Shown here piece after piece: positions 1,231 to 53,699 of a stretch of 64,000 nucleotides of DNA. Source of the DNA: Patescibacteria group bacterium (GTDB lineage: Bacteria > Patescibacteriota > Patescibacteriia > UBA2591 > JAQUPP01); assembly GCA_041649955.1 (NCBI GenBank), contig JBAZMD010000001.1, positions 68,079 to 132,078 on the forward strand. The letters are read 5' to 3'. Within the stretch, counting starts at the first letter, position 1, and the number at the start of each line of letters is the position of its first letter. A program made the position numbers and the translations under genes. The notes beneath the pieces are model-generated. The model saw only the letters and a program-made list of their open reading frames with translations. It did no database searches and was not told the origin of the DNA.

Positions 1231-1383
1231 GTAGCGAAATAAATTTCGCTACAAATTTGAGTACCCCGTCTCCAAACCTGTCAACAAAATAAATATTGTT
1301 AATGTAAATAAGCCGCAGGCGTTACCGTGAGTTAAATTCACGATTATCTCAAAATTTTATTCGGGTTTGGGGCGTGGGTTAAC
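1231..1383. repeat. Intergenic repeat family B, copy 1
   Basis: Hairpin gtagcgaaat-aa-atttcgctac, C-rich block tgagtaccccgtctccaaacct, core aataagccgcaggcgttacc, and G-rich end ttcgggtttggggcgtgggtt. Confidence 0.7.
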
Positions 1384-1412
1384 GTGTCTATATTTTATCA
1401 GAAATAAACGAT

Positions 1413-1440
1413 TTGACAAGTATAAAATTTTTGCTATAAT
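1413..1440 (+). promoter_or_regulatory. Sigma70-type promoter for the 58-aa + strand gene
   Basis: TTGACAagtataaaatttttgcTATAAT (extended -10 TGc). Confidence 0.7.
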
Positions 1441-1465
1441 AAATTTGAAATAAAGGAGGTGAAAA

Positions 1466-1642
1466 ATGATAGGCGGTATAATTCTTGTGGTAATTGGTTT
1501 TATATTATTTGAAGTTAGTTTTAGTTGGGATTTAAAAAATCTTGGTTCATTAAATCTCAATTTAATACAAGATTACGGGCCTCCAATAACAATAATATGC
1601 GCAGGCGCCATGATCTTAATAGGAATAAATAAAATCTTCTAA
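1466..1642 (+). CDS. Small two-TM membrane protein (58 aa), below the ORF-track cutoff
   Basis: ATG 1466 is preceded by AAGGAGG and by a TTGACA-N16-TGcTATAAT promoter. Reads MIGGIILVVIGFILFEVSF...ITIICAGAMILIGINKIF and is followed by a hairpin plus T-run. Confidence 0.6.
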   Translation: MIGGIILVVIGFILFEVSFSWDLKNLGSLNLNLIQDYGPPITIICAGAMILIGINKIF

Positions 1643-1663
1643 AACTTTACCACTAAAATACAA

Positions 1664-1700
1664 AATAAGCATCCATTTAATATCGGGTGCTTATTTTTTT
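1664..1700. terminator. Bidirectional intrinsic terminator (58-aa + gene and serS)
   Basis: Hairpin aataagcatcc...gggtgcttatt flanked by an A-run and a T-run. A second hairpin atcccgca...tgcgggat lies at 1701-1734. Confidence 0.6.
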
Positions 1701-1744
1701 ATCCCGCACCTTCCTAATAAAAAAGATGCGGGATTTATTCTATT

Positions 1745-3073
1745 TTATTTCTTTTCAATTTTTGAAAAACCGCAATATTTTTGCAAGACTTCTGGAATCA
1801 AGATTGATCCGTCTTTTTGCTGATAATTTTCCAAAACAGCCAAAATCATTCTTCCCAAAGCCACGCCGGTATCATTAACAGTATAACAATATCCTTTTTC
1901 ATTATTATTTTTTTGATAGCGAATATTCAATCTTCTGGCTTGAAAATCAGTCGCGTTGGTGTCAGTCATTGTTTCCATAAATTCATTGGCCGCTATTCTC
2001 CAAGTTTCAACATCATATTGCTTGTGACTGGCGGCATAACCGGCATCACCGGTGCATTTTTGAATCACCCGATAAGGCATTTTAAGTTGTTGCAGCAACC
2101 ATTCATTAATAGACACCAATTCTTCAAAAATTTCATCTGCTTGCTCGGGAAGGCAAATAACGTCCATTTCCAATTTATCAAATTGATGGACTCTTTTTAT
2201 TCCGTGAACGTCTTTTCCCCAAGAACCGACCTCGCTTCTAAAACAAGAAGACAGAGAGCACATTTTAAAAGGCATATCTTTTTCTGAAAATCTTCTATCC
2301 ATTCCGTAGCCGAAAAGTGACGGCTCGGAAGAACCGACTAAAAATAATTTATTTTTATCTTCCACGTTTTCATCGCTGATTTTATAAACCTGATCATATC
2401 CTTCGGGAAAATGGCTGGTGCCAAAAAGCACTCTTTCTTTAACCATCAAAGGCACAACCATTGGCATGAACTTTCTTCTTAAAAGTTCTTTGAATAACAA
2501 ATCAATAATCGCAAATTGCAAAATAACCGCTTCTTTTTTTAAGTAACAAAATCTTGAACCCGAAGTCAGGGCGCTTTGTTCTACGTCAATAATATCCAAA
2601 TCTTTGCCCAATTCAATATGATCCTTGCCCGGAAAATCAGATTTCGGCATCTGAGCAACGACTTCAAATCCTTTTCCCAATAAAGATTTATCTAAATATC
2701 CTTTTTCCGGAGTCCAGACTCTGACATCAATATTATCGTCTTCGCTTTTGCCGATTGGCGTATCTTCGCTCATCAAATTGGGAACCCAAACAGCCAATTT
2801 GTCCATTTTAGTTTTAATTTCTTCAAGTGATTCTTCTGTGGTTTTTAATTTTTCTTTCAATTCTTTTCCTTTGGCTCTTATCGCTTCATCTTTACCGGCA
2901 GTTAAATTATTTCTCTCAGCGCGAATATTTTCCACTTCTGTTAATTTTTTTCTGTATTCTTCGTCCAATTCCAATAACGCATCCACATCAGCTTTTTGCA
3001 AATCCATTTTTCGATTGATAATATTTTGCTTGATTTTTTCTTTGTTTTCTCTGATGAATTTAATATCTAACAT
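1745..3073 (-). CDS. serS: Seryl-tRNA synthetase
   Basis: 442 aa. N-terminal coiled-coil arm followed by a class II core (RVHQFDKLE, TGVALGRMILAVLENYQ). Confidence 0.95.
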   Translation of the reverse strand: MLDIKFIRENKEKIKQNIINRKMDLQKADVDALLELDEEYRKKLTEVENIRAERNNLTAGKDEAIRAKGKELKEKLKTTEESLEEIKTKMDKLAVWVPNLMSEDTPIGKSEDDNIDVRVWTPEKGYLDKSLLGKGFEVVAQMPKSDFPGKDHIELGKDLDIIDVEQSALTSGSRFCYLKKEAVILQFAIIDLLFKELLRRKFMPMVVPLMVKERVLFGTSHFPEGYDQVYKISDENVEDKNKLFLVGSSEPSLFGYGMDRRFSEKDMPFKMCSLSSCFRSEVGSWGKDVHGIKRVHQFDKLEMDVICLPEQADEIFEELVSINEWLLQQLKMPYRVIQKCTGDAGYAASHKQYDVETWRIAANEFMETMTDTNATDFQARRLNIRYQKNNNEKGYCYTVNDTGVALGRMILAVLENYQQKDGSILIPEVLQKYCGFSKIEKK

Positions 3074-3100
3074 AATGATTAAAAAAAATTATACATTTAT

Positions 3101-3270
3101 AGCGAAATTAGCTCGAACGAAGTCGCGGAAAAGCCTTAGAAAATTAAGGAGTTTTATTGAAAAATTCATCTGTTTGACGACCTCTTCGGGAGGAGTTATG
3201 AATTTTTCAAAATAAAACGAGTATAATTTTCAAGGTTTTGGAGCGCTGGAGTGAAAGCGAAATTCGCGGC
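3101..3270. repeat. Intergenic repeat family A, copy 1 (abuts the lysS stop)
   Basis: About 170 nt, near-identical to 38613-38781. Contains gtcgcggaaaagccttagaaaattaaggagttttattgaaaaattcatctgtttgacgacc..ggaggagttatgaatttttca.aataaaacga.tataattttcaagg.ttt.gagcg. Confidence 0.8.
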
Positions 3271-3273
3271 TAT

Positions 3274-4734
3274 TTATAATTTGGGGCGCAAAATTGGGAA
3301 TAAAATAACTTCCCGAATATTGCAAGTATTGGTTAAAATAAGAGCCAATCGATCAATGCCAATTCCTTCGCCGGCTGTGGGCGGCATGCCGTATTTTAAA
3401 GCTTTAACGAAATCTTCATCAAGACCTTGCGCTTCTTGGTCCCCTTTTTCGCGCAGTTTATCTTGCTCGTCAAATCTTGATTCTTGATCCAAAGGATCGT
3501 TTAATTCTGAAAAAGCATTGCAAATTTCCATTCCGGCCACCAATAGTTGAAATCTTTCCACATAATTCGGATTATCAGGGCATTTTTTGGCCAATGGCGA
3601 AAGTTCAATCGGATGATGAATTAAAAAAGTCGGATTAATAAGTTTCGGCCTGACGCGCTCTTTAAAAAGTTCATCTAAAATTTTTCCTCTGTCCCATGAT
3701 TTTTCAACTGTTATGCCAAGTTTTTTCACTTGTTCAATCAATCCTTTTAAATCGCGGTATTCTTCAATATCAAGGCCTGTTTCATTTTTAATCGCTTGCC
3801 TGAATTCCAATCGCGGATAAGGCGGTTTGAAATTCAAAGTATTATTTTGATATTCAATGGTCAGTTTTCCTTCCAAATTAGACAACAAATATTCAAATAA
3901 TTCTTCGGTCAGTTTCATTAAAACATTATAATCGGCATAGGATTGATAAAATTCTATTTGGGTAAATTCAGGATTGTGAGAAGCATCAATGCCTTCATTG
4001 CGGAAACATTTTGCAATTTCATAAACTCTTTCAAATCCGCCGATAATCAATCTTTTTAAATAAAGTTCCGGCGCAACTCTTAAATATAAATCAATATCCA
4101 AAGCGTGATTATGAGTGACAAACGGCCTGGCAATTGCTCCGCCGGCTATTGCTTGAAGAACAGGCGTGCTGACTTCCATATAATCCCGCTGATTGAAAAA
4201 ATCTCTGATTAATTGTATCATTTTCGTCCTTTTGACAAAAATATCTCTTACTTCTTGATTGGCAATTAAATCCAAATATCTTTGACGATATCTTGTTTCC
4301 ACATCAGACAAGCCGTGCCATTTTTCAGGAAGCGGTAAAAGAGCCTTGGATAAAAGTTTCCAACTCGTCGCTTTAATTGTTTTCTCGCCTCTTTTGGTAA
4401 TAAAAAGATGACCCTTGATTTCCAAAAAATCGCCGACATCAATATTTTCATTAAAAAACTGATATTCTTTTTCTCCAACATTATCTTGAGCGAAAAAAAT
4501 CTGAAAACGGCCGGTTCCATCTTCCAGATTGGCAAAACACGCCTTGCCGTGAAGCCGCAATAAAACCAAGCGTCCGACTAAACTTACCAAAATTTCTTTT
4601 TCCGATAATTTATCAAAATCATCAATCGCTTGTTTTACGGTATGAGACCTCTCGGATAAAGCCGGATACGGATTAACTTGGCTTGATTTAATTTTTTCTA
4701 ATTTTTCTATTCTTGATTGTTCTTCGTTAGTCAT
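3274..4734 (-). CDS. lysS: Lysyl-tRNA synthetase, class II
   Basis: 486 aa. OB-fold N-domain and class II motifs (CFRNEGIDASHNPEFTQIEFY, GEGIGIDRL). Confidence 0.95.
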   Translation of the reverse strand: MTNEEQSRIEKLEKIKSSQVNPYPALSERSHTVKQAIDDFDKLSEKEILVSLVGRLVLLRLHGKACFANLEDGTGRFQIFFAQDNVGEKEYQFFNENIDVGDFLEIKGHLFITKRGEKTIKATSWKLLSKALLPLPEKWHGLSDVETRYRQRYLDLIANQEVRDIFVKRTKMIQLIRDFFNQRDYMEVSTPVLQAIAGGAIARPFVTHNHALDIDLYLRVAPELYLKRLIIGGFERVYEIAKCFRNEGIDASHNPEFTQIEFYQSYADYNVLMKLTEELFEYLLSNLEGKLTIEYQNNTLNFKPPYPRLEFRQAIKNETGLDIEEYRDLKGLIEQVKKLGITVEKSWDRGKILDELFKERVRPKLINPTFLIHHPIELSPLAKKCPDNPNYVERFQLLVAGMEICNAFSELNDPLDQESRFDEQDKLREKGDQEAQGLDEDFVKALKYGMPPTAGEGIGIDRLALILTNTCNIREVILFPILRPKL

Positions 4735-5480: not shown

Positions 5481-7406
5481 TTATTTTTTCTTTTGTTCCG
5501 CCCACCAAGATAAAATTTCTTTGGCAGCCGGTGCGGCAAAAGACGAACCTTCACCCCCATTTTCCACTAAAATAGTCAAAGCTATTTCCGGATTTTCATA
5601 AGGCGCAAAGCAAGTAAACCAAGCGTGATTGCCCTTACCTTCTACCTGAGCCGTGCCGGTTTTACCGGCGACTTGAATCGGCAGAGTATTTAAACTGCGA
5701 GCGCTGCCCGTCGTGATAGTCTGGCGCATTCCTTCTCTGACTAATTCCAAATATTTTGCATCAATAAAATTTTCTCTGATAATTTGGGGATGAATAATTA
5801 TTTTTTGGCCGGTTTCCGGATTATCAATTTCTTTGACCAAGCGAGGTTGAAAAAGAGTTTTGCCATTGGCGATTGCCGCCGTATAATTCGCCACTTGAAT
5901 CGGCGTTACCAAAATATTGCTCTGACCAATAGACAAATGATAAGTGTCGCCGATGTACCACGGTTCTTTTATAACATTTTCTTTATAAGCGGGAGTCAAT
6001 AAAAAACCGGTTGCCTCGCCTTTTAAATCAATGCCTGTCTTGCTGTTTAAACCGAAAAGTTCGGCATATTGAATAATTTTTTCCGGCCCAAGGCCTTCAA
6101 AATTTCCAAATCCTCCGCCAATATAATAAAAGAAAGTATTTACCGATTCGGCTAAAGCTTTTCTAAAATCAGTCACACCGTGCCCGCCTGTTTTCCAATC
6201 ACCGAAAAACCACTGTCCGATTCTTACTCCTCCGGTAGAAAGGATTGTTGTTTTCTCGTTGATAATGCCTTCGGCAAAAGCAGCGGCTATTTCAATCGGC
6301 TTAAAAATTGAACCGGACGGATATTGGCCGCTGATCGCCCTGAAAAATAATGGTTTGGATGGATCTTCTATTAAGGTTTTGAAATCACTGGCGCTTGCTT
6401 GAATAAAAATATTATTATCAAAAGTCGGCCAGCTGACAATAGCTAAAATCTCGCCGTTTCGCGGATCTATTGCTACGGCTGATCCGGCACGAGCGCCGGC
6501 AGCTTTAATATAATGGCTTAAAACATCAGTAACTTTTTTTTGCAAACTCGCGTCAATGGTTAAAATCAAATCTTGCCCGGTTTGAGGCGTTTTTTGGCTG
6601 GCGATTCTTTTTTCTCTTCCAAGCGAATCAACTTCAATATTTTTTTCTCCATTCTCTCCTTTCAAAATATTTTCGTAATTTAATTCCAATCCTGTTTTGC
6701 CGAGAGAATCAGTCATTGAGTATTCTTTATTATCAGCCAATTCTTCCGGAGTAATTTTACCCATATAGCCGATAACATGCGAAAAATACGTGGGATCCGA
6801 ATATTGCCTTTTCGGTTCTATGTTTACGGAAACGCCGGGCAGTTCTTCCAATTTTAATTTTATCGCTTCTTCATAACTCAAATTATCTTTTAAAATAATA
6901 GGATATATTGATTGATTGGGCTGTTCAGCCGTAAGCTTGGATAATTCCTCTTTAGTTGAATTTTCCAATGATTCTCCCAAAAAAGATAAAATTTTGTTAA
7001 CAATTTCTATTCTCGTTTCTTTATTTTTAGGCAAATCCAAAGGCGTTATTATCAAAGAAAAATTCGGCATATTTTTAACCAAAGGCGTCTGATAACGGTC
7101 ATAAATAAGCCCTCTGTCCGCTTTAATTGTTTCAACGCGGATTCTGTTGCCCTCGGCCATATTTCTGAATTCATGTCCGGAAAAAACTTGAAGCCAAAAA
7201 ATCCTGCCGAATACTATGGTTAAAATCGCAATCATTAAAAAAATAAAAATATTGAGAGATTTTTTCTCCATAGGCAAAACTATCGGCCCGGCCCAATTTT
7301 CTTCCGGCGGCCAATAATTGCCCGCGTATCGGCGCTGATTAAACCCTTCTAATTTTCCATCTCTGATATTTTTGTCTTCTTGTTTAATTTTAAACGGATC
7401 ATCCAT
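5481..7406 (-). CDS. mrdA: Penicillin-binding protein 2 (elongation transpeptidase)
   Basis: 641 aa with an N-terminal TM. Transpeptidase motifs SxxK (SIFK), SxN (SVN) and KTG (KTGTA). Lies directly downstream of mreC-mreD. Confidence 0.85.
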   Translation of the reverse strand: MDDPFKIKQEDKNIRDGKLEGFNQRRYAGNYWPPEENWAGPIVLPMEKKSLNIFIFLMIAILTIVFGRIFWLQVFSGHEFRNMAEGNRIRVETIKADRGLIYDRYQTPLVKNMPNFSLIITPLDLPKNKETRIEIVNKILSFLGESLENSTKEELSKLTAEQPNQSIYPIILKDNLSYEEAIKLKLEELPGVSVNIEPKRQYSDPTYFSHVIGYMGKITPEELADNKEYSMTDSLGKTGLELNYENILKGENGEKNIEVDSLGREKRIASQKTPQTGQDLILTIDASLQKKVTDVLSHYIKAAGARAGSAVAIDPRNGEILAIVSWPTFDNNIFIQASASDFKTLIEDPSKPLFFRAISGQYPSGSIFKPIEIAAAFAEGIINEKTTILSTGGVRIGQWFFGDWKTGGHGVTDFRKALAESVNTFFYYIGGGFGNFEGLGPEKIIQYAELFGLNSKTGIDLKGEATGFLLTPAYKENVIKEPWYIGDTYHLSIGQSNILVTPIQVANYTAAIANGKTLFQPRLVKEIDNPETGQKIIIHPQIIRENFIDAKYLELVREGMRQTITTGSARSLNTLPIQVAGKTGTAQVEGKGNHAWFTCFAPYENPEIALTILVENGGEGSSFAAPAAKEILSWWAEQKKK

Positions 7407-18643: not shown

Positions 18644-18815
18644 ATTTACCTCATTGGGGCGAGGATTATGTCGCTAAGAAAAGTGTCTTCCGCCAAAGGG
18701 CGGATAAACTCCGGGCGAGTAGTTCGCCAGCTGGGGCGGAGAGCCCGAGAGCCAAGCGACAATTTTCCCGCTGGGAAAATTGATCGTGTCTTTTCGTGCG
18801 ACTAATCCGAACCTT
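18644..18815. ncRNA. GC-rich multi-hairpin element filling the rpsU-yqeY spacer (candidate structured RNA, class unknown)
   Basis: Closing stem ggattatgtcgc (18663-18674) with gcgactaatcc (18798-18808). Inner hairpins are ccgcc-aaag-ggcgg, gcga-gtagt-tcgc, gggc-ggaga-gccc, and a perfect 10-bp caattttccc-gct-gggaaaattg. Confidence 0.45.
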
Positions 18816-19041: not shown

Positions 19042-19069
19042 ATTATAATATATAATAATTAAAAAGCAA
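19042..19069 (-). promoter_or_regulatory. Promoter for rpsU (near-leaderless)
   Basis: ggggcTTGCTTtttaattattatatatTATAATataaagtATG. Only 7 nt separate the -10 box from the ATG. Confidence 0.55.
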
Positions 19070-19222
19070 GCCCCACCACATGGAAATTATTGTTTTTCTG
19101 TAAAATTACGATTTAATAAGTATAAATTAAAAAAAATATTTTAGTTAGATATTTGAAATTATTAAGCATATAAAAAAACAAGAGAACAGTAATTTTAATA
19201 ATTTCCTTGTGGTGGGGCAAGC
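19066..19222. repeat. MITE-like hairpin element with a C-rich and a G-rich arm, full-length copy
   Basis: Arms gcaagccccaccacatggaaattatt and aataatttccttgtggtggggcaagc. The AT-rich interior is homologous, in inverted orientation, to 54813-54962. Confidence 0.75.
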
Positions 19223-19256
19223 CTATTCTAACACATATTTTTATAGACGGGAAGAA

Positions 19257-25290: not shown

Positions 25291-25343
25291 AATTTTTTCC
25301 TCCTTTTTTTCCCATTATATAATGGGCTAACCTTTATAATTAA

Positions 25344-25372
25344 ATAATAGCAAAAATTTTGATTTTTGTCAA
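25344..25372 (-). promoter_or_regulatory. Conserved promoter module (PLP-enzyme gene)
   Basis: ggggaTTGACAaaaatcaaaatttttgcTATTAT. Confidence 0.7.
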
Positions 25373-25376
25373 TCCC

Positions 25377-26237
25377 CTATTTTTGTTCTTCTTGCTTCCT
25401 AGATTGTACAATTATAGCTTTTTCTACTAGTTCAATATCATTAGGAAGTTTCTTCGCTTCAAAGTCGCCATTATTATCTTGTGAACTAATTTTTTCATAA
25501 AGTAACTTTAATCTATTTTGTTTTTCATCAGTAAGATTCCAACCTTTTTTGAAATCTTCCGTAGATAAAGGGATGTCATATCTGTATAAAATTTCGTTTT
25601 TAATAAAACCGGCATTTTTTAATAATTCTAATAAGGCTTGTTCATCTGTGATAAATTTTTCAACTGCTACTTTTTCTGCAATAATCTTTTCCCTTTCTGT
25701 ATAAAGATAATTAGTCATTTGATTATTTCGAACGGCCGGTGAAACTAAAGCGGATAAAATAAGCTTGCCATCATTTTTTAAAACCCTATTCACTTCTGAT
25801 AGAGCTTTTATCTGTAAGGGTTTTGGAAGATAATCTAAAACCTGTTTTATGGTAATTATGTCGACTGATTTATCATTCAGGGGAATGTCAATAATATCCC
25901 CTGGAAGTTTATCATAACCCTTTTTATCAGGAATCTCATTAAGCATGTCTAGATTCCTGTCAATAAAAATTGTTTTAATGTTAATTCCTTTGTCTTTTAA
26001 TTTCTTCTCAAATTCTTTATTAAAAAAATCCCCGCATATTCCGGGACCGCAACCAATATCAGCTAAAATAATTTCTTTTTTCTTAGCTATTTCTTCAAGA
26101 TCTAAACCGCGAAACATATTCTCTAATACGTCTTCTCTGGCCTGATAACCACGCAAGGATTCTCTATAATTTTTTATCCTCCAAGTATCTCTTGAAACAA
26201 TGTCGCCAGTTGAAACTCCTTTTTCAATATTTGTCAT
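25377..26237 (-). CDS. Class I SAM-dependent methyltransferase
   Basis: 286 aa. Motif I ILADIGCGPGICG, then FIDRN and DIITIKQVLDYL. Confidence 0.8.
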   Translation of the reverse strand: MTNIEKGVSTGDIVSRDTWRIKNYRESLRGYQAREDVLENMFRGLDLEEIAKKKEIILADIGCGPGICGDFFNKEFEKKLKDKGINIKTIFIDRNLDMLNEIPDKKGYDKLPGDIIDIPLNDKSVDIITIKQVLDYLPKPLQIKALSEVNRVLKNDGKLILSALVSPAVRNNQMTNYLYTEREKIIAEKVAVEKFITDEQALLELLKNAGFIKNEILYRYDIPLSTEDFKKGWNLTDEKQNRLKLLYEKISSQDNNGDFEAKKLPNDIELVEKAIIVQSRKQEEQK

Positions 26238-28433: not shown

Positions 28434-28540
28434 CTTTCCTCCTTTTTCCCTTGTTTTTCAAGGGAATTTCTGAAAAATTTGATTTCTTGTTTTTAAACCC
28501 TTGTTATTAAATTACAAAGAACTTTATCTTTTATGTTAAA

Positions 28541-28569
28541 ATAATAGCATATTTTTTGATTTTTGTCAA
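28541..28569 (-). promoter_or_regulatory. Conserved promoter module (78-aa gene)
   Basis: ggggTTGACAaaaatcaaaaaatatgcTATTAT. Confidence 0.7.
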
Positions 28570-28580
28570 CCCCTTTATTA

Positions 28581-30125: not shown

Positions 30126-30668
30126 CTAATTTTTAAGCGAAAATCTCCATTTTTTGTTTGCCCAATAAGGTCCGGCATAATCAATCCCAACTCTCTTAGT
30201 CGCAAAAATGCGGGATTTATTTATTTTTTCTCCTCTGTCTTCCAACCAAAATCTTTTGCTTTCAATAACATCTTCGCCGTAAAATGATTTGTCCAATTTT
30301 AAATATCTACAAAGTTTTCCCGGCCCGGAAGTTAAATTTTTTTCTTTAGAAGCTAGAGCGCGAATTAAAACGCATTCCGGCTTGCCTGATTTAGAAGTAG
30401 TGATATTCAATTGCCAATACATGCCATAAACCAAATAAATATAAATATGCCCGCCCTTGAAATATTCAGCAATATTTCGAGAAGTCATTCGATTGTTATA
30501 AGCATGGCAAGCTCTGTCTTTTGGGCCGACATAAGCTTCTGTTTCAATAATTTTTCCTTCTAATTTTTTATTGCCGATTTTTCTGACAATATATTTCCCC
30601 AATAATTCCTTGGCTACTTTTAAAGTCGGCCGAGTATAAAAATTTCTGGTTAATTTTTTTATTTTCAT
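30126..30668 (-). CDS. mpg: 3-methyladenine DNA glycosylase (AAG/Mpg family)
   Basis: 180 aa. Motifs ETEAYVGPKDRACHAY and YIYLVYGMYWQLNI, typical of Mpg. Confidence 0.85.
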   Translation of the reverse strand: MKIKKLTRNFYTRPTLKVAKELLGKYIVRKIGNKKLEGKIIETEAYVGPKDRACHAYNNRMTSRNIAEYFKGGHIYIYLVYGMYWQLNITTSKSGKPECVLIRALASKEKNLTSGPGKLCRYLKLDKSFYGEDVIESKRFWLEDRGEKINKSRIFATKRVGIDYAGPYWANKKWRFSLKN

Positions 30669-30817
30669 CCCTCACCCTTCGACGATAATATTCGCCCTCG
30701 TATTTTCCAATTGCCTTTTATAAAATAAAAATAAATTTTCTTGAATCCAGATTAAACTGAATAAATTAGTAAAGACAGGCTCGTATTTGGAAAATAACAT
30801 CGTCGAAGGGTGAGGGA
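30668..30817. repeat. Perfect 19-nt inverted repeat spanning the mpg ribosome-binding region
   Basis: tccctcacccttcgacgat (30668-30686) pairs with atcgtcgaagggtgaggga (30799-30817). A second tier pairs tattttccaa with ttggaaaata. Confidence 0.7.
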
Positions 30818-30823
30818 TAAACT

Positions 30824-38054: not shown

Positions 38055-38202
38055 AAGCAATTTTTGCTATAACCTTGAGAATCCCGCTTCAAATCTCTGA
38101 ATAAAATTGGTTTAAAAACCAAAGTAAGCCGAAGGCGTTTCCGCGGGATAAATTAAATTATTTTTAAAAAACTTTTTTTGGATTTGAGGCGTGGGTTACC
38201 GT
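38055..38202. repeat. Intergenic repeat family B, copy 2
   Basis: ttgagaatcccgcttcaaatct ... gtaagccgaaggcgtttccgcggg ... ggatttgaggcgtgggttacc. Confidence 0.7.
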
Positions 38203-38225: not shown

Positions 38226-38253
38226 TTGACACATTTTTTAAATATGCTATTAT
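38226..38253 (+). promoter_or_regulatory. Promoter module in + orientation (AsnC-type mini-gene)
   Basis: TTGACAcattttttaaatatgcTATTAT. Confidence 0.7.
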
Positions 38254-38554: not shown

Positions 38555-38588
38555 AGGTCCTGCAAGAAATTGCAGGCCTTTGATTTTT
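38555..38588 (+). terminator. Intrinsic terminator after the AsnC-type mini-gene
   Basis: aggtcctgcaa-gaaa-ttgcaggcct, followed by ttgattttt. Confidence 0.7.
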
Positions 38589-38612
38589 AATCCTTCATCC
38601 CTCCACGCTTGT

Positions 38613-38781
38613 GGCGAAATTCGCCTGAACGATGTCGCGGAAAAACCTTAGAAAATTAAGGAGTTTTATTGAAAAACTCATCTGTTTGACGACCTATTTG
38701 GGAGGAGTTATGAATTTTTCAGAATAAAACGAATATAATTTTCAAGGATTTAGAGCGTTGAGTGAAGGTGAATTTTGCAAC
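38613..38781. repeat. Intergenic repeat family A, copy 2 (abuts the methyltransferase stop)
   Basis: See copy 1. Starts with the palindrome ggcgaaattcgcc. Confidence 0.8.
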
Positions 38782-38785
38782 ACTT

Positions 38786-39640
38786 TTATTTTTTTCTTAA
38801 TTGATAAATGGTGTAGAATTTGGAAAAAGCGGGATGTTTAACCGGCTCTTTTATTTTTTTAACAATCGTAAAATATTTTTTAACCAGCCGGTCAAACATT
38901 TTTTCCGGCAGCATAGTAACGCGATGCGGCTGATTGTAAAAATCAAAAGTCATTAAATCATATTCTTTTTGAGTGATTTCTTTGTTTTTTAATTTCTCGC
39001 CTAAAAACAGATTAAATTTGTTCATCTCGGTAGTGTATTCTTTCTTGTTGTAAAATCGCGGATCTGAATAAGCGCAGCTTTCCCAAATATAAATTTTATT
39101 ATTCAATGATTTGAAATAATTCGGCTGGCGCTTGCATTTTTCAATCACGCTTTCCGCGGTCTGCAATATCGGACTCGCGTTGGTAACGGTAATAATCAAT
39201 TCTCCTCCCGGTTTCAGAATAGTTTTCATTGCCTTAAAAAATTGTTCGTACAACTCAAGATTGACCAAATTATTGGTTACGGCATGGCCGATAATGCAAT
39301 CAAATGTTTTGGGAAGAAAATATTTTGTCGCTTCTGTCCAAAGACCGTTGGTTATTTTTTCTTTGCTTTCTATTTTTTTTAAACCGTTCATTGTTTCAAC
39401 CATATTTTGGCTGAATTCCAAAAGCGTGACCTTAAATTTCATTTTTGCCAGACAATCCCGAATGGCCGGCGTACAGCCTAAAACCAAGGCCTTATTGCCT
39501 GATTTCTTTTTAATGATTTTTAAAATTTTAGCGCAAGCGGCAATATGCTTTTTTGAAGGCACAAAAGGCGGCGGAATTTTGGCATAGGTTTGAGTATACC
39601 CTTCTTGCCACACTTTTTTATTTATTGCTTCTTTTTCCAT
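38786..39640 (-). CDS. SAM-dependent methyltransferase, paralog family LG.TPE.RD (copy 2 of 3)
   Basis: Motifs ALVLGCTPAIRD, LLEFS, ILKPGGELIITV and tail KKYFTIVKKI. The start is set at ATG 39640, 5 nt after the upstream stop. The ORF-track start at 39673 would overlap the upstream gene by 28 nt. Confidence 0.7.
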   Translation of the reverse strand: MEKEAINKKVWQEGYTQTYAKIPPPFVPSKKHIAACAKILKIIKKKSGNKALVLGCTPAIRDCLAKMKFKVTLLEFSQNMVETMNGLKKIESKEKITNGLWTEATKYFLPKTFDCIIGHAVTNNLVNLELYEQFFKAMKTILKPGGELIITVTNASPILQTAESVIEKCKRQPNYFKSLNNKIYIWESCAYSDPRFYNKKEYTTEMNKFNLFLGEKLKNKEITQKEYDLMTFDFYNQPHRVTMLPEKMFDRLVKKYFTIVKKIKEPVKHPAFSKFYTIYQLRKK

Positions 39641-40479: not shown

Positions 40480-40494
40480 AATTGTCGATTTAGA

Positions 40495-40658
40495 TCCGCC
40501 AACTGGCGGAGAAATAAATTTTCGCTACAATTTATGAGCACCCTGCTTCAAACCTCTAAACAAAATCAGTTCAAAGATAGCGTAAGCCGAAGGCGTTTCC
40601 ATGAATTAAATTAATTATTTTTTCACGAACCTTCTTCGGGTTTGGGGCGTGGGTCGCC
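40495..40658. repeat. Intergenic repeat family B, copy 3
   Basis: ttcgctacaatttatgagcaccctgcttcaaacct ... gtaagccgaaggcgtttcc ... ttcgggtttggggcgtgggtcgcc. Confidence 0.7.
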
Positions 40659-40669
40659 ATAAAATAATT

Positions 40670-41506
40670 TTAATTATATTTTTGAAGAATAAAATAAAAA
40701 TATTTTCTTTTTCCATTTTTAAATGAATTGCATAACTCTGAATCTTTAACTCCCGCGAATTGCTTGCCGAGATTTTGCAAAAATTTCGGCAAAAATTGCC
40801 TAACAAGTTTCATCCTTCTTTCATTATCCAAATTCAATGCCCTAAAAACATTTTCCGTTATATCTTCTTTTTTTATTATTTTCAATTTTGATTTATTAAT
40901 GGAGTCAAAAAAAGATTGAATTAATTCCCGGCTTCTGAAATCGGCGAATAAAAAATATCCTTTAGGTTTTAATATTCTTTTCGCTTCCTGTAAAAATTTA
41001 TTAAAATTAGGGTAAGAATGAGAAGATTCTATGTTTATCGCCGCGTCAAAACTTTCATCTTCAAAAGGAATTTTTATGGCGTTTCCGTATTCAAATTTTA
41101 AATTTTTTTCATAATGATGCTCTCTGTCAAATTTTATTTCTGCTTTGGAATTATCTATGCCGACGATCAGTTTGGGCTTGAAATATCTGGCAATGAAAGA
41201 AGTTCCGCCGCCCTTCCCGCATCCTACTTCTAAAACTTTTTTATCTTTTATATTAATAGAACTCACTACCTTATGATACAACTGGGCGCAATATCTGTTT
41301 TCTTCATCAATTTTTTCCAATCTTAATTTTTCCCGGTATTGATATCCGTAATTCAAAAAAATCACCTCTCCTTTTGAATCAATTTTTGAAAGATGATTAT
41401 ACCACTTATTCACCACTAAAGACTGGCCCTTAAGATAAATCTTGTTGACTAAATTAAAAAAATTTAATATCTTTATTAATTTTTTAATCCAATCTTTCTT
41501 CGTCAT
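40670..41506 (-). CDS. Class I SAM-dependent methyltransferase (Methyltransf_11-like)
   Basis: 278 aa. Motif I VLEVGCGKGGGTSFIA, then VGIDNS, FDAAINIESSHSY and ILKPKGYFLFADF. Confidence 0.8.
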   Translation of the reverse strand: MTKKDWIKKLIKILNFFNLVNKIYLKGQSLVVNKWYNHLSKIDSKGEVIFLNYGYQYREKLRLEKIDEENRYCAQLYHKVVSSINIKDKKVLEVGCGKGGGTSFIARYFKPKLIVGIDNSKAEIKFDREHHYEKNLKFEYGNAIKIPFEDESFDAAINIESSHSYPNFNKFLQEAKRILKPKGYFLFADFRSRELIQSFFDSINKSKLKIIKKEDITENVFRALNLDNERRMKLVRQFLPKFLQNLGKQFAGVKDSELCNSFKNGKRKYFYFILQKYN

Positions 41507-41513
41507 ATATTTT

Positions 41514-42962
41514 TTATTTTCGCCCTCTTTTAATTATTATAACCTTCCCGTGTGTTGCGTCAACTTCTATCAAATCACCGTCTTTCAAAACCTTAGTGGC
41601 GATTTTGGTGCCGATAATACACGGCTTTCCCATTTCACGGGCAATGATAGCCGCATGACAAGTTAATCCGCCATCATTTGTAATTATTGCTTTAGTTTTT
41701 GAAATTGCCCCCATAAAATCTGGAGTTGTCATAAAAGTAACAAGAATTTCTCCTTTTTTCATTTTAGATATTTCGGCCGCATTTCTGATAATTCTAACTC
41801 TACCCTTAACATAACCGGCCGAGGCTGACACACCTTTAATAATCCGTATTAAAGAATCTTTAACAATTTTATTCTTGGGTATAAAAATTTTTATTTTTCC
41901 TTTATGTAATCTTATAAAATAATTATTGTTTCTTTTTTTAAGCTCGGGGGTGGAAATTAAAAGTTTTCCAATTTTTAAACTGGCAATTAATTCATCTGAA
42001 GTCAAATTAGTTAAATCAGTATAATCAACAGAAAGTCGCTTGCCAACTTCTGAAAAAAAGAATCTCATTAAGTATTCCGAGTTTTCTATGAAAGAAAGCA
42101 TTTCTGTTCTATAAAAAGACAGATTAGCTAAATCTTTAAATAATTTTTTTGTAATTTTATCAATTGCATATTTTTTATATAATGCCTTCTTGTCAGAAGC
42201 TAAATCAATTTTCATTTTGGGATAATTTTTTTTCTTTAGAGCAATTTTTATTTCCTCAATGGTGTCTATAATTGTAGGGTATTTATCAGTAGTAAAAAAG
42301 ACACAACCCATTCTCACATATTTTTGATGAAATTTATTTATTATTTTTTTTAGTCTTTTGGGGGAATTATCAATTATTTCATTCAATTTTCTATTAAACA
42401 ATTTTTGGTATTTCGCTCTTCTGATAAAATTAACGATTTTTTGCAAATCATCCTGCTTTTTTTCGATATAATTTTTTCTAGAGGACTGCATTAATATCCC
42501 AAATTCTTCATCTTCTTGTTTTTTATTAACAACTGATAGCAAATTTTTAGTAAGTGCATCAATGCTAAAATTTCCTGTATACACATAACCTATAAAACGC
42601 GCATAATAATCTGTCCAAGCTGTAAATAATTTTATCAATTTTCTATTTGAATACTTCTCTATTTTATAGGAGCTGACCTTTTTACTGAATTTATATAATT
42701 TCCTTCCATATTTTTTGTATTCAGCAAAAAGTTTTTTTAATTTACCATTTTTAATATTCTTCAATATTTCATGATGCGCAACCTCTATATCTTCTAACCC
42801 AAAATAAGCTTGAGCTTTAATCTGACTATTTATATATTTATAATCTTGGATTATCCTGCTATGCAAGGGTGTTTTAGAAACATAACCCGCTAAGGCGTAT
42901 TTAGTGGCTATATATCTGGGAAGCAGAGGTAGGGCCTTTTGTGTTGTAGCTATCCATTTCAT
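41514..42962 (-). CDS. Unknown ~370-aa N-domain fused to a C-terminal PEP-utilizer mobile (swivel phospho-His) domain, paralog C
   Basis: 482 aa. C-terminus GEILVTFMTTPDF...GGLTCHAAIIAREMGKPCIIGT...DGDLIEVDATHG. Confidence 0.8.
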   Translation of the reverse strand: MKWIATTQKALPLLPRYIATKYALAGYVSKTPLHSRIIQDYKYINSQIKAQAYFGLEDIEVAHHEILKNIKNGKLKKLFAEYKKYGRKLYKFSKKVSSYKIEKYSNRKLIKLFTAWTDYYARFIGYVYTGNFSIDALTKNLLSVVNKKQEDEEFGILMQSSRKNYIEKKQDDLQKIVNFIRRAKYQKLFNRKLNEIIDNSPKRLKKIINKFHQKYVRMGCVFFTTDKYPTIIDTIEEIKIALKKKNYPKMKIDLASDKKALYKKYAIDKITKKLFKDLANLSFYRTEMLSFIENSEYLMRFFFSEVGKRLSVDYTDLTNLTSDELIASLKIGKLLISTPELKKRNNNYFIRLHKGKIKIFIPKNKIVKDSLIRIIKGVSASAGYVKGRVRIIRNAAEISKMKKGEILVTFMTTPDFMGAISKTKAIITNDGGLTCHAAIIAREMGKPCIIGTKIATKVLKDGDLIEVDATHGKVIIIKRGRK

Positions 42963-42980
42963 AATTTAATTTTAAATTAT

Positions 42981-43925
42981 TTACAAAGTCGTAATCGGCC
43001 TACTTTGTACGATATAGAACTTTTTATTTTCCAAAGCCCACTCAATATCGCAGGGAAATTTATAATGTTTTTCAATTTGAGCGCACAATTTAGCCAATTC
43101 AATAATTTGTTTGTTGTTGAATTTTTGTTTAGCACGCAATTTATTCGGCACTTTTACCCATTCGCTGCCAATGCCTGATTTTTTCTGAACAATCATTTTT
43201 TCTTGCTCTGAAATATTAATATCAATAATTTTCCATGTTTTTTTATTAATCACATAACTGTCAGGCGTAATATGTCCGCCGACAATCGCCTCTCCCAAAC
43301 CCCAACCGGCTTCAATAATCAGCTGGTTTTTATCTTTTGTAACAGGATGAGTGGTAAAACAAATGCCTGAAATTTCCGATTGAATCATTTTCTGAATTAC
43401 CACGGCCACGGAAACTTTTGATTTTCTCATTCCTTGTTCCCGGCGATAAACAATTGCTCTTTGAGTAAAAAGCGAAGACCAGCAATCTTTAACTCGACCT
43501 AATAAATTCTGCCGAGTTGTATTGAGATAACTTTCCAGTTCTCCGGCCCATGAAGCGACTGACGAATCTTCGGCTGTCGCGCTGCTCCGAACCGCCACAT
43601 GTTTTGCTTTTAATTTATCAAAATCAATTAAAATTTCTTGCTGTAAATCTTTAGGCATTTTTGCGTCATGAATTAAATCGCGAATTAATTTTGATGCCTG
43701 ATCAACCGAATTAACATCTTTATAATTCACTTTATTTAAAGCCGATTCAATTTCAACATCTATATCAGTTTCTGTTAAAAATCTTTCAAAGGCATCAGCC
43801 AAAACCACAAATCCCGGCGGCACTTGAATTCCCGCTTGTGTCATTTCTCCCAACGACGCCCCCTTGCCTCCGGCAATTCCAACATCTTTTTTTGATAATT
43901 GTTTAAAATTTTTAGTAAATTTCAT
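42981..43925 (-). CDS. Stand-alone PPDK_N / PpsA-type ATP-grasp nucleotide-binding domain protein
   Basis: 314 aa. Motifs GGKGASLGEM, VAVRSSATAEDSSVASWAGE and DIEWALENKKFYIVQSRPITTL. It has no swivel domain and no PEP/pyruvate domain. Confidence 0.85.
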   Translation of the reverse strand: MKFTKNFKQLSKKDVGIAGGKGASLGEMTQAGIQVPPGFVVLADAFERFLTETDIDVEIESALNKVNYKDVNSVDQASKLIRDLIHDAKMPKDLQQEILIDFDKLKAKHVAVRSSATAEDSSVASWAGELESYLNTTRQNLLGRVKDCWSSLFTQRAIVYRREQGMRKSKVSVAVVIQKMIQSEISGICFTTHPVTKDKNQLIIEAGWGLGEAIVGGHITPDSYVINKKTWKIIDINISEQEKMIVQKKSGIGSEWVKVPNKLRAKQKFNNKQIIELAKLCAQIEKHYKFPCDIEWALENKKFYIVQSRPITTL

Positions 43926-43945
43926 ATATTTTTATTTTAATTTAT

Positions 43946-45397
43946 TTATTTATTTTTTAAAATTTTGACTAATCCATGATTTGCATTAACTTCCACCAAA
44001 TCACCGTCTTTCAAAACCTTAGTGGCAATTTTGGTGCCAACCAAGCACGGAATCCCTAATTCCCTTGAAACAATAGCCGCGTGGCAAGTTAATCCTCCTT
44101 CGTCGGTAATAACCGCCCCTGCTTTTTTTATTGCCACAATAAATTCAGGCGAAGTCATTGGGGCAACCAAAATTTCACCTTGCTTCATTTTATTTAGATT
44201 ACGGGGTGTTAATAATATTCTGACTCTTCCCTGAATTTTACCGCAACCGGCGCTGACAACCATACCATTTATTATCCCAGATTCTCTATTGACTTCCTTT
44301 TTCAAGAAAGGCCTGATTAAATTTATCTGTTTTTTCCCGCTCTTGAGAGTCAAAACATTTTTATAATAATGAATTAAGGCAAATTTTTTTCTATTTGCTA
44401 TTTCTTTAGAAGATACTTTTGCGCCATTTTTTAATAATTTGATAATTTCATTCGGCCAATAAAACATTAAATCGGAAAAATTAATTTTTTTTCTTCTGGA
44501 AATCTCTTTCAAGAATAAATCAACATAATGATTGGCGATAAAAATTTCTTTTTTCCTCGTATCCTGCCACCAGATTGAAGCCGAAAGCCTTTTAACTGTC
44601 TTAATGGTTTTTGCGTTAAGTTTATATTTTCTGAATAATTGATTTTTTTGAAAAATTATTTTTCTCGGCAAATTTTTGATTTCCTTTATTTTTTGATTAA
44701 CTTGCCTGATGCCTGATAATATTTTTTTAAAATACTCCGCTTTCAATTGTTTTTGTTCAAAATAACTGTTTCTAATCCAAAAATATCGTCGGATATGTTT
44801 TTCAATCAATTGATCAAATTTTTTTGTTCCCTGATATTTTTTTATTTCCAATAAATCCAATTCTTCTTTTTGATAAAAAGAAAGATTTTCCGGAGCGGCT
44901 AATTTTTCAAGGGCTGAAATAAATTCTTTTTGGTTGTCAATTTGCTTGGATAATTCTTCTTTTAAAATTTCTTCACCGCCCAAATTGGCAAGTTCCGGAA
45001 CTAATCCCACTCCCCAAAAATTTATATACAAATTGTGCCATTTATTGTAAGTATCGGCGAAGGCCTTATCAGTCAATAAACCGAGAGATTTTTCTGAAAT
45101 TTTCGTCTGGAAATTTTTTAATTTATTCAAGGCTTTTTTATAATCAGCTTGAACTTTTTTAAAATTTAAATCATTCAAAATCCATGTATTAAAATGTTTT
45201 CTTCCGGCTGTCCTGACATTTTTTTCATCGGAAATAAAAGTCATTTTATCTTTTGTAAAATAAAACAAAATCTCGGGCCAGTGATATTTGTAATAACGGG
45301 GCAAGTTCGTGGCAATCCCTATCATAAAATAGGATATATAAATCATTCTCCCGTCAATCGGTCCCCAAATCCAAAGTTTTTTTTGTGAATTAATCAT
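43946..45397 (-). CDS. Unknown ~370-aa N-domain fused to a C-terminal PEP-utilizer mobile (swivel phospho-His) domain, paralog B
   Basis: 483 aa. C-terminus GEILVAPMTSPEF...GGLTCHAAIVSRELGIPCLVGT...DGDLVEVNANHG. Confidence 0.8.
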   Translation of the reverse strand: MINSQKKLWIWGPIDGRMIYISYFMIGIATNLPRYYKYHWPEILFYFTKDKMTFISDEKNVRTAGRKHFNTWILNDLNFKKVQADYKKALNKLKNFQTKISEKSLGLLTDKAFADTYNKWHNLYINFWGVGLVPELANLGGEEILKEELSKQIDNQKEFISALEKLAAPENLSFYQKEELDLLEIKKYQGTKKFDQLIEKHIRRYFWIRNSYFEQKQLKAEYFKKILSGIRQVNQKIKEIKNLPRKIIFQKNQLFRKYKLNAKTIKTVKRLSASIWWQDTRKKEIFIANHYVDLFLKEISRRKKINFSDLMFYWPNEIIKLLKNGAKVSSKEIANRKKFALIHYYKNVLTLKSGKKQINLIRPFLKKEVNRESGIINGMVVSAGCGKIQGRVRILLTPRNLNKMKQGEILVAPMTSPEFIVAIKKAGAVITDEGGLTCHAAIVSRELGIPCLVGTKIATKVLKDGDLVEVNANHGLVKILKNK

Positions 45398-46868
45398 TGT
45401 TTAAATGTTTTAAAATTTTAACAATTCCCCTGTTCGCATCCACCTCCACCAAATCCCCGTTACGTAATGTCCCTGTTAAACCGTGAATTCCTACTATACA
45501 AGGTGTTTTCAACTCTCGCGAAACAATGGCCGCATGAGAAGTGATACCACCCCTTTCGGTTAAAATCGCTTTTGCTTGCTTCATAAGAAAGATATAATCC
45601 GGCGTAGTGTGGGAGGCAACCAATATAGCTCCCTTTTTAAATTTAGAAAAATCTCTTTCTGATTTTATAATTAAAACTTGGCCGATAACGTTTCCAGGAT
45701 AAACGGCTGCCCCGCAAAGAACCTTTTTCTTTTCTTGGCGCAATAAAATTGATCTTATTTTCAGAGCTGACTCACCTTCTAATAATGAGTAATCTTTATC
45801 AATCCCCAAAAAGATAATGGTGGATTTTTGTCTTTTTTTAATAAGATTTAAAAAATTATTTTTATTTTTTAAATTTATCTGCAACTGCTCTTCCCAAGTT
45901 AACCATCTGAATTTTTCGTAATCCAGCGCATAATTTTTTGCCACTCTTTTAAGCCAAGTCTTAATGGGTATTGTTGTTTGTAAATTAAAAGCTTTTCTTT
46001 GGTCTCTTAATTTATACAGAATATCAAGAAAATTAATCAATTTTTTAATATTTTCAGGTTTTGTTTTTAAAATTTTTCTCTTCTTTTTTCTTTGTTTTTC
46101 CGAACATTTTATTTTTTCCCACTCATTTTTAAAATTCTGTGCCAAATCTATACCATGTTCTATAAATAAAATTTCTTTTGGCAAAGCGTGCGACTTAAAA
46201 TTTAAAAATACCCAACCCCATTTTTGAGCGTGAAAAATAATTTTTTTACTTAAAATCTCATATTTTGCCAAATCTCGTACTCCGCTTTTTAGCTTTTTAA
46301 ATTCTTCAGACGGCAAACTTTTAATCAATTCTAATAAATTTTTATGTTCTTCCATTACAAAAGAGTCCTGTAAGGGCGTCATCAGCAACATTAATTCTTT
46401 CTCGTCTTTAATGGTTTCTTTGATTTTTATTTCCAAATATTTTTCAACAGCTTCACAGGTATTCATTAATAAAGCCATCCACTTCTGAATAACTTCTACA
46501 AAATTCGTATATATTTTTTTGTCTATCTTTGCTGATTTTTCTAATCTATCAAGAGCTTGCCAATTTTTTTTCGTCAGATTAATAAATTCTTTTTCTAATT
46601 GAATTGGATTATTCTTATATTTCAAATAAAATACCTGGCCCAATTTTAATAATGATTTTTTATCCAAACAATAATAAAAAGAATCTTTGTCATAAATTTG
46701 AATTAATTTAGCGCAGATTCCAAACATTTTTTTCTGAAGAGTACAGCTTCTCTTAAAACCCAAGTCCGTCCACCAAAAAAAATCAGCGTCATATTTGCCG
46801 ATTTCAAGATCGTCTTTTATCTTTTTTATTTTATTGATAAAGCTAGACACAAGTTTCTTTTCGGACAT
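45390..46868 (-). CDS. Unknown ~380-aa N-domain fused to a C-terminal PEP-utilizer mobile (swivel phospho-His) domain, paralog A
   Basis: 492 aa. C-terminus GAILVASHTTPDY...GGITSHAAIVSRELKTPCIVG...NGDLVEVDANRG. Overlaps the next gene by 8 nt. Confidence 0.8.
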   Translation of the reverse strand: MSEKKLVSSFINKIKKIKDDLEIGKYDADFFWWTDLGFKRSCTLQKKMFGICAKLIQIYDKDSFYYCLDKKSLLKLGQVFYLKYKNNPIQLEKEFINLTKKNWQALDRLEKSAKIDKKIYTNFVEVIQKWMALLMNTCEAVEKYLEIKIKETIKDEKELMLLMTPLQDSFVMEEHKNLLELIKSLPSEEFKKLKSGVRDLAKYEILSKKIIFHAQKWGWVFLNFKSHALPKEILFIEHGIDLAQNFKNEWEKIKCSEKQRKKKRKILKTKPENIKKLINFLDILYKLRDQRKAFNLQTTIPIKTWLKRVAKNYALDYEKFRWLTWEEQLQINLKNKNNFLNLIKKRQKSTIIFLGIDKDYSLLEGESALKIRSILLRQEKKKVLCGAAVYPGNVIGQVLIIKSERDFSKFKKGAILVASHTTPDYIFLMKQAKAILTERGGITSHAAIVSRELKTPCIVGIHGLTGTLRNGDLVEVDANRGIVKILKHLNND

Positions 46869-53436: not shown

Positions 53437-53464
53437 CCCTCTGTGGACAAATTACAAATAACTC

Positions 53465-53693: not shown

Positions 53694-53699
53694 TAAACG

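Follow-up and report, generated by a model that had tools for sequence, protein, structure and literature searches.

Introduction

Bacterial miniature inverted-repeat transposable elements (MITEs) are described as non-coding, A+T-rich elements of under 200 bp that carry a terminal inverted repeat, TA termini and a target-site duplication, and whose transcript folds into a long stem-loop; the ERIC/IRU and YPAL/RU-2 repeats of enterobacteria are imperfect palindromes of 127 bp and 168 bp, respectively (PMC2229807). Here, we compare with such elements two families of small intergenic repeats, A and B, that occur in a 64,000-nt stretch (35% GC; hereafter the window) of the genome of a Patescibacteria group bacterium (contig JBAZMD010000001.1, positions 68,079–132,078), an affiliation borne out by the proteins of the window and by its closest public relatives. 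Our favored interpretation, to which we give roughly even confidence, is that these are two separate, low-copy, lineage-restricted families of small non-coding stem-loop repeats, A being of the MITE/ERIC/YPAL type and B a promoter-proximal structured module.

Family A resembles ERIC and YPAL in being under 200 bp long, non-coding and A+T-rich, in folding as one long imperfect stem-loop with a short open reading frame (ORF), in lying in intergenic DNA within or at the end of putative transcription units, and in having filled and empty sites between close relatives. It differs from them in that only two copies were seen, as against tens to hundreds, in that neither TA termini nor a target-site duplication is demonstrable, in that no transposase was found among the ~30 window genes scanned, and in its streamlined Patescibacteria host and lack of similarity outside its clade. 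On this comparison, A matches the description of a palindromic intergenic repeat of the ERIC/YPAL/MITE kind. Both A (~180 nt) and B (~130–150 nt) have the size and shape of a MITE, being non-coding, A+T-rich and predicted to form a long stem-loop, and filled and empty sites were found for both A copies (A1 and A2), for one B copy (B3) and for the body of another (B2). The many copies and the matching transposase of a MITE family were not found: 74 kb of this genome hold two copies of A and three or four of B, and the ~30 window genes scanned contain no transposase domain.

Family B is less readily placed. It recalls the Correia/NEMIS and RUP-type MITEs in its 16-bp inverted arms, A+T-rich interior, length of ~130–150 bp, diverged copies and presence or absence between strains; unlike theirs, its arms are internal, it has no target-site duplication and it numbers only three to four copies, while the changes in its arms are compensatory or wobble-compatible on one strand and its orthologues are invariant, which would be unexpected of selfish DNA. 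With lineage-specific small RNA gene families B shares paralogues of common fold that are intergenic and conserved each at its own locus, a −10-like box at constant spacing, and a long helix between the 5′ and 3′ ends, but it has no recognizable terminator or −35 element and no match among 4227 Rfam models. Finally, B resembles the intrinsic terminators and promoter-proximal hairpins of this same genome (for example, at 54165–54235), whose arms are C-rich and G-rich, with the G-rich 3′ arm abutting the next −35 element, and whose favored strand is that of the downstream promoter; B, like a further spacer described below (I7), departs from those hairpins in having ~85–105 nt between its arms and no U-tract directly after the stem. 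An attC site was considered for both families and rejected: neither the ends of A (GTTCGAG, GTTCAGG) nor those of B (GTTAACG, GTTACCG) keep the purine positions of the core sites, and the genes scanned yielded no integrase domain.

Distribution of the two families

All five copies listed in a preliminary description of the window, two of A and three of B, are present, with a similarity far beyond chance (nhmmer E 1e-42 or better), and one marginal B-like match was found in addition. A further 10 kb of the same genome, which brought the total scanned to 74 kb, held no copy of A or B, and ~66 kb of related strains held none at any new site. The relatives compared are designated L031, L092, L093, L094, L097, L098 and L101, to which a strain with 85% identity was added; the clade carrying A and B is of species level, at 88–95% nucleotide identity. 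No copy was seen in ~21 kb of a relative with 69% SerRS identity, and look-ups via GreA, S21 and the protein encoded at the window's right edge yielded no further strains with A or B sites.

Pattern scans of genome and metagenome collections found no homologue of either family outside this clade. The scan of the genome collection, made with a G+C-rich two-block pattern, returned 80 loci, nearly all of them chance matches in high-GC genomes, the real one being that of L031; a stricter three-block pattern gave one real locus in the metagenomes, that of L092. Both scans recovered only the orthologue of B1, in these two close relatives. A viral collection and plasmids contained nothing similar to A or B, apart from one 34-nt chance match. 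With Rfam 15, whose models include the T-box, riboswitches, 6S, SRP, Y RNA and tmRNA, run both at the gathering score and at E<=10, no match overlapped any copy of A or B, so the earlier statement that the repeats belong to no known RNA family stands; the only gathering-score match across the whole window is a tRNA-Gln. On present data, both families appear to be confined to one species-level clade.

The preliminary description had also regarded A and B as relatives, parts of A seeming to resemble B in reverse complement. The comparisons do not bear this out: in a search with profile hidden Markov models (HMMs; nhmmer --max, E<=10, both strands), neither family finds the other, and Smith–Waterman scores of A, on either strand, against each B lie within the range of dinucleotide shuffles, the best of 12 comparisons being reached by 5/300 shuffles before correction. 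Homology of A and B was rejected on these two tests. What the families share is short motifs, such as the −10-like AATTTCGCTAYAAAT, which resembles the extended −10 element of this genome's promoters (TGCTATAAT/TGCTATTAT). Judged by sequence comparison, A and B are two unrelated families, both lineage-restricted.

Family A

The first copy, A1 (3093–3272, with no strand assigned), is an imperfect palindrome of ~180 nt between the stop codon of lysS (3274–3276) and the start of serS (3073); the identity of lysS was verified by TIGR00499. The second, A2 (38599–38781, likewise without strand), lies between a bidirectional terminator (38559–38576) and the stop codon (38786–38788) of an S-adenosylmethionine (SAM) methyltransferase gene. 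That terminator belongs to the AsnC-like gene and is a separate hairpin beside A2. The two copies are 90–91% identical over ~175 nt (3097–3272 against 38609–38783), are detected by nhmmer at E 1e-59 to 1e-61 and have the ends TTGTGGCGAAATTC. Both end 3–5 nt from the stop codon of a minus-strand gene, which confirms the abutment on such stop codons reported earlier. This location directly behind two stop codons could reflect a target preference or a role in the 3′ untranslated region (3′-UTR).

The palindromic nature of A is evident from its own HMM, which matches its own reverse complement at E 1.6e-5, and A folds as one long rod on either strand, with predicted energies of −54.8 kcal/mol (z −4.0) on the plus strand and −44.3 kcal/mol (z −5.0) on the minus strand. 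The 11-bp stem described previously is perfect in A1 and retains 10/11 pairs in A2, and the GC hairpin at its apex is present. The terminator scan found no G+C-rich hairpin with a direct U-tract in A. On the plus strand, a micro-ORF of five codons, MNFSK, can be read in A1 at 3198–3215 behind GGAGGAG, and its counterpart in A2 (38710–38727) encodes MNFSE; GGAGGAG and the ATG-initiated five-codon ORF recur in the L093 orthologue of A2, and the Shine–Dalgarno (SD) sequence and ATG sit within the arms of the A helix. Although the micro-ORF is thus present in all three sequences as had been claimed, its conservation is uninformative because the A copies are ~90% identical, and nothing beyond this presence in near-identical copies supports it. 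There is no other ORF in A or B.

Comparison with relatives reveals filled and empty sites at both loci. A1 is present in the window and absent from the lysS–serS spacer of L031 and L092, which holds ~50 nt of unrelated sequence there, while the genes flanking the site align at 91–95%. In L031, the spacer where A1 would be (6340–6380) consists of TTAACGGATTAA/TTAACGAG repeats, to which a protein may bind. As expected for a repeat, a Logan contig of the window's own strain breaks inside A1. A2 is present in the window and in L093 (91.8% identity, with flanks at ~88%), and its site is cleanly empty in L097 and L098, where both flanks are conserved; the gene map of the strain with 85% identity has a gap of only 66 nt at this site. 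The empty site in L097 and L098 places the inserted segment at about 38599–38780, with CA/CAC microhomology at the junction and ~15 extra nucleotides on the left beyond the whole-length palindrome. Direct repeats at the junctions are 2–3 bp long (CA/CAC at A2, TAT at A1), with register shifts of 1–2 nt between copies, and are no more than chance would give in A+T-rich DNA. A1 is also flanked by a 7-bp direct repeat, ATTTATA, which is probably internal, since the homology with A2 runs through it.

The substitutions in A do not follow its fold. Among three A sequences, 13 predicted pairs vary on the plus strand, of which six are broken, five are wobble-only and two are compensated, and the minus strand has a similar mix of wobble and broken pairs. 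A evolves near-neutrally, about as fast as its flanks, and its pairing is not preserved by substitutions. Because of this nearly neutral evolution, any function of A is probably incidental. At two sites, each 3–5 nt downstream of a stop codon, A has come or gone as a discrete block. We envision that transcription of lysS and of the methyltransferase gene would continue into A, so that their mRNAs would carry it at the 3′ end as one long hairpin, which could affect 3′-end stability, processing or termination. The earlier proposal of MITEs or 3′-UTR stabilizers fits A reasonably well in its ~180-nt palindrome, its filled and empty sites and its position right after stop codons; it was made for both families, and its fit is to A.

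Two other identities for A were rejected. A T-box leader of serS is contradicted by the lack of a T-box sequence and of an Rfam match, and by A2, which does not adjoin an aminoacyl-tRNA synthetase gene. A template and variable repeat pair of a diversity-generating retroelement is contradicted by the differences between A1 and A2, which are not adenine-specific, and no reverse transcriptase is present.

Family B

Three sure copies of B, all assigned to the plus strand, were delimited by alignment and folding. B1 (1231–1385) lies between the start of alr (1199, minus strand) and a plus-strand promoter at 1413–1440; its helix P1 pairs 1264–1280 with 1365–1381, and weaker homology reaches left to about 1204. 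B2 (38055–38202) lies between a giant surface-protein gene (start 37808, minus strand) and the promoter of the AsnC-like gene (38226–38253, plus strand). B3 (40495–40660), with homology reaching left to 40480, separates two minus-strand methyltransferase genes (stop 40670, start 40479). A candidate diverged copy, B4 (53311–53437, minus strand), combines a perfect long-range C/G-rich helix of 12 bp with a core GC hairpin; it is marginal, the covariance model R1 scoring it at 16.5 bits on the minus and 15.2 bits on the plus strand (E about 0.2–0.4 over the whole window).

The alignment of B1, B2 and B3 has a mean column identity of 79% (nhmmer E 1e-42 to 1e-44); the paralogues are 70–77% alike, that is, they differ by 23–30%, with the helix intact. 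The core TAAGCCGNAGGCGTT is conserved, and the ends of the family are ACCCCGYCTYCAAAYC. The C-rich and G-rich blocks that the preliminary description had recognized as complementary do form a 16-bp P1 helix in all three copies; its comparison of them with terminal inverted repeats fails, since the homology continues 35–50 nt beyond the left arm. This left extension includes a small palindrome and a −10-like box 8–9 nt before P1 (TACAAA, TATAAC and TACAAT). The whole module measures ~130–150 nt, and its interior carries an invariant GCC-GMA-GGC hairpin.

Read on the plus strand, the 19 pairs of the 16-bp P1 and the GCC-GMA-GGC hairpin are standard pairs in all three copies (57/57 cells). Two pairs of P1 change on both sides, from C-G to U-A, and two more vary from C-G to U·G. 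Five U·G positions on the plus strand would be C·A on the minus strand, where the consensus helix is reduced by two pairs, with three cells broken, and where in B2 it is not formed in the minimum-energy fold. This pattern favors, on thin support, a pairing of B in plus-strand nucleic acid. The preliminary description had named a restriction to the window without covariation as telling against its proposal; this is partly what we find, as the copies are clade-restricted, but B has two compensatory pairs, a number that in three sequences is not significant. Each paralogue also has a predicted hairpin of different sequence at the same interior position, which is suggestive, although such hairpins arise easily by chance in A+T-rich RNA. 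The terminator scan found in B only a weak 7-pair site at 1370–1389; an AUUUUA tract follows 8–12 nt past the helix in all copies, and the U-tract does not adjoin the stem. A tRNA-like or Y RNA was rejected as an identity for B, the sole T-loop-like hairpin being restricted to B1.

Strong promoters, recognized by consensus match, stand close to most B elements. To the right of B1, the promoter scan identified TTGACA-16-TATAAT with TG (1413–1440, plus strand), 33 nt downstream of the element, and to the right of B2, TTGACA-16-TATTAT with TG (38226–38253, plus strand), 29 nt downstream, with scores of 12/12 and 11/12, respectively. The G-rich arm of B4, in minus orientation, abuts the TTGACG-16-TATAAT of an AbrB-family/efflux operon. 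With the marginal B4 counted, three of the four B elements lie 0–33 nt upstream of a strong co-oriented promoter. The fixed position relative to genes claimed at the outset for both families therefore holds for A, and for B only as this spacing of 0–33 nt from a co-oriented promoter, in two of the three sure copies. On the plus strand, the promoter stands between B and the downstream gene. A constant position of the riboswitch type was not found on either strand: the genes downstream of B (alr, the giant surface protein, methyltransferases, the small membrane protein, the AsnC-like and the AbrB-like genes) are unrelated.

The promoters of B1 and B2 are kept in relatives, and the small genes driven from them, which encode a 58-aa membrane protein and an 80-aa AsnC-like protein, respectively, are hypervariable. 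The membrane-protein ORF next to B1 (1466–1642 in the window, 4719–4900 in L031 and 2466–2630 in L092) has 47–68% identity, with its promoter and terminators conserved, and the AsnC-like gene by B2 is far more diverged than its surroundings.

B itself hardly varies between orthologues. B1 and its promoter region show zero differences across 1168–1433 (~266 nt) between the window, L031 and L092, where adjacent coding sequence is 87–98% identical, and no relative was seen without B1. B2 is 100% identical to its L093 orthologue over 118 nt at the end of that contig, with the identical tract extending to 38231 and flanks at ~88%; in all, there are 0 differences in 141 nt, as against about 17 expected at 12% divergence. 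In L097 and L098, the body of B2 is replaced, and the last 18 nt of the 3′ arm and the promoter are almost unchanged. B3 and the methyltransferase gene at 40670–41506 form a single block (40482–41501) that was gained or lost together and is absent from L093, L094 and L097. The L097 counterpart of B4 is 97.6% identical, and the sequence to the right of B4 is unalignable there. B is thus strongly constrained and behaves like a functional unit, and A behaves like nearly neutral DNA.

The region to the right of B3 (40670–46868) consists of paralogous PEP-utilizer, PPDK_N and methyltransferase genes whose content is strain-variable: L093 has more copies, and the whole cluster is gone in L097.

Other structured spacers in the window

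Several further intergenic regions of the window have extensive predicted structure. In I7 (19061–19227), 31-nt C/G-rich inverted arms enclose 105 nt of A+T-rich sequence between the stop of a Na/Pi-cotransporter gene (19257) and the promoter of rpsU (S21), with the G-rich arm abutting the −35 element. I7 is absent in L101, which has a short GGAG/CUCC hairpin instead, and its arms are identical at 17/21 positions to those of the hairpin at 54165–54235. That hairpin, with a stem of 21 bp, follows the gene at 54282–54695, and its G-rich arm overlaps a TGGACA that resembles a −35 element and belongs to the next gene. Its fold is more stable on the minus strand (−38.6 kcal/mol) than on the plus strand (−27.7 kcal/mol), where one G·U pair becomes A·C.

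A second long-range structure, I9 (30664–30821), is a perfect 20-bp helix whose arms are 112 nt apart. On the minus strand, it pairs the SD sequence and start codon (30668) of the methylpurine-DNA glycosylase gene mpg with an upstream C-rich arm, so that in the predicted fold I9 looks like a leader that would sequester translation. The block containing mpg and I9 (30138–30818) is missing in L101. The 170-nt spacer between rpsU and yqeY (18644–18815) is G+C-rich and strongly structured, with a predicted fold of −72 kcal/mol and a z of about −5 for both strands. Rfam yielded nothing for it at E<=10, and L101 lacks it, having a spacer of 54 nt instead. Since I7, the block of I9 and mpg, and the 18644–18815 spacer are all absent in L101, turnover of hairpin spacers is a general feature of the lineage.

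On the minus strand of the non-coding stretch 53440–53734, a consensus promoter (TTGACA at 53727) is followed by two SD-led micro-ORFs (MKAMA* and MSHYRGIPP*), a long hairpin and an intrinsic terminator; this region may be a small RNA or peptide unit, and its sequence is entirely different in L097. A minus-strand promoter module, (A)GGGG-TTGACAAAAATC...TGCTATTAT, recurs at 25326–25377, 28523–28574, 54785–54818, 57017–57068, 58388–58439 and 62797–62848, and in about six of the scanned intergenic TTGACN promoters, a G-run immediately precedes the −35 element. The genes serS (3073), alr (1199), methyltransferase (40479) and rpsU (19034) start without an SD sequence, 7–20 nt after −10-like boxes, which suggests leaderless or very short-leader mRNAs beside genes with a perfect AAGGAGG.

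Discussion

We interpret A as a MITE/ERIC/YPAL-type repeat and B as a promoter-proximal structured module. From the invariance and the helix of B, we infer a functional structured unit, most likely a short plus-strand RNA that would start from the −10-like box 8–9 nt upstream of the helix, or else an insulator of the downstream promoter. Several observations weigh against this interpretation. For A, the copy number is very low for a mobile family (two A, with three to four B, in 74 kb); there is no convincing target-site duplication, and the 2–3-bp microhomologies fit deletion equally well; and neither a domain scan of ~30 window genes nor the gene maps of the fetched contigs revealed a transposase or recombinase domain. 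For B, the arms cannot be termini, given the homology beyond the left one. Some relatives do without B2 and B3, and B3 has no downstream promoter. The covariation is not significant, as 123/500 shuffles of the three sequences do as well, and the strand call rests on five transitions (p about 0.03, one-sided), and the plus strand is itself T- and C-rich overall. Finally, better promoter-like sites read into B1 and B2 on the minus strand, with small hairpins and then a U-run at the far end.

The alternative that survives best takes the B elements as genes for trans-acting small RNAs on the plus strand, each with a separate −10 box, a U-rich tail and, in between, a body of ~128 nt closed by P1, and A as unrelated junk. 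Small RNA genes had been proposed for the repeats from the start, and for B they remain a live option through the invariant orthologues, the helix on one strand and the −10-like box. P1 is fully paired only on the plus strand, with two compensatory changes; the TACAAT/TATAAC/TACAAA box stands at a fixed 8–9 nt before the helix, the AUUUUA tract 8–12 nt after it in all copies; and the interior hairpin, with its different sequence in each paralogue, is at the same position. On the other hand, there is no −35 element, only the −10 box of B3 has both key positions, the distance of the U-tract from the stem leaves no canonical terminator, B2 and B3 are missing in close relatives, and the covariation falls short of significance in a family with no homologue found outside the clade. 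We consider this explanation possible, though well short of probable.

A broader version of our own interpretation would make B a previously undescribed class of promoter-proximal structured RNA or insulator in Patescibacteria, possibly together with B4, I7 and I9. Its members would share a C-rich/G-rich closing helix around a ~100-nt A+T-rich interior, and B would be invariant at the borders of swapped or diversified cassettes, where it could insulate transcription or act as small RNAs while anchoring cassette exchange. We offer this extension tentatively and think it rather doubtful.

Read on the opposite strand, B could be a 5′ leader or processing element of alr, the giant surface-protein gene and the methyltransferase gene, transcribed from divergent promoters that overlap the plus-strand ones. 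Candidate sites exist at B1 (TTGTCA-16-TAAAAT with TG, at 1419–1392) and B2 (GTGTCA-16-TAAAAT, at 38232–38205), and each of the four copies has a TAAAAT 8–12 nt ahead of its C-rich arm; the alr ATG follows the end of B1 by 32 nt and the methyltransferase ATG that of B3 by 16 nt, neither gene having an SD sequence, and the neighboring I9 would sequester the mpg SD and ATG in just such a minus-strand helix, of 20 bp and long range. However, P1 would contain two constant and three variable C·A mismatches on this strand, and the helix of B2 is absent from its minimum-energy fold. The downstream genes share no function, which makes a ligand-sensing riboswitch unlikely; the gene next to B2 begins 247 nt away and has a TGTTATAAT promoter to itself; and TAAAAT coincides with the position of the A/T-rich UP element of the plus-strand promoter. 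A minus-strand leader therefore seems unlikely to us.

Nor do we put much weight on B acting as DNA, as recombination or inversion sites or as protein-binding palindromes at the borders of variable cassettes, with its strong conservation stemming from service as a recombination anchor. Variable genes do adjoin B (the small ORF by B1, the AsnC-like gene by B2 and the unalignable sequence right of B4), B3 with its methyltransferase and I9 with mpg were each gained or lost as one block, and the spacing of the arms, ~100 bp, is like that of invertible promoter segments. Against this, an inverton was rejected because none of the seven related contigs has a flipped orientation, no domain of an invertase, integrase or integron integrase turned up among the ~30 window genes scanned, neither of the attC core sites (RYYYAAC and GTTRRRY) occurs in the arms, and the differences in the arms fit wobble pairing on just one of the strands, an indication of single-strand pairing; this explanation is quite improbable.

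Least probable of all is that the copies are functionless relics of a local segmental duplication, conserved through short divergence times or recent recombination between co-occurring strains: the order and orientation of B, promoter, small plus-strand gene, terminator and A are the same at 1.2–3.3 kb and 38.0–38.8 kb, the copies cluster in two places within 74 kb, and the window strain and L093 come from the same sample, but B1 is identical in strains of three different samples while the adjacent ORF has 47–68% identity, the sequence between B and A is dissimilar at the two loci, A1 is absent in strains that keep B1, and the B paralogues differ by 23–30% with an intact helix.

Patescibacteria genomes are tiny and tightly packed, and a full-text search of the literature on non-coding RNA, intergenic repeats and MITEs in Patescibacteria and the candidate phyla radiation found nothing relevant that describes small repeats or non-coding RNAs there. 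In the lineage studied here, strains only 5–12% apart in sequence already differ in which intergenic hairpin elements they carry. If both families were only selfish or relic DNA, they would still be strain markers, and an assembled contig of the same strain ends inside A1. Regulation in Patescibacteria is almost unknown. B is invariant next to fast-evolving small genes; should it prove to be an RNA or an insulator, it would count as a further, lineage-specific regulatory element of these compact genomes.

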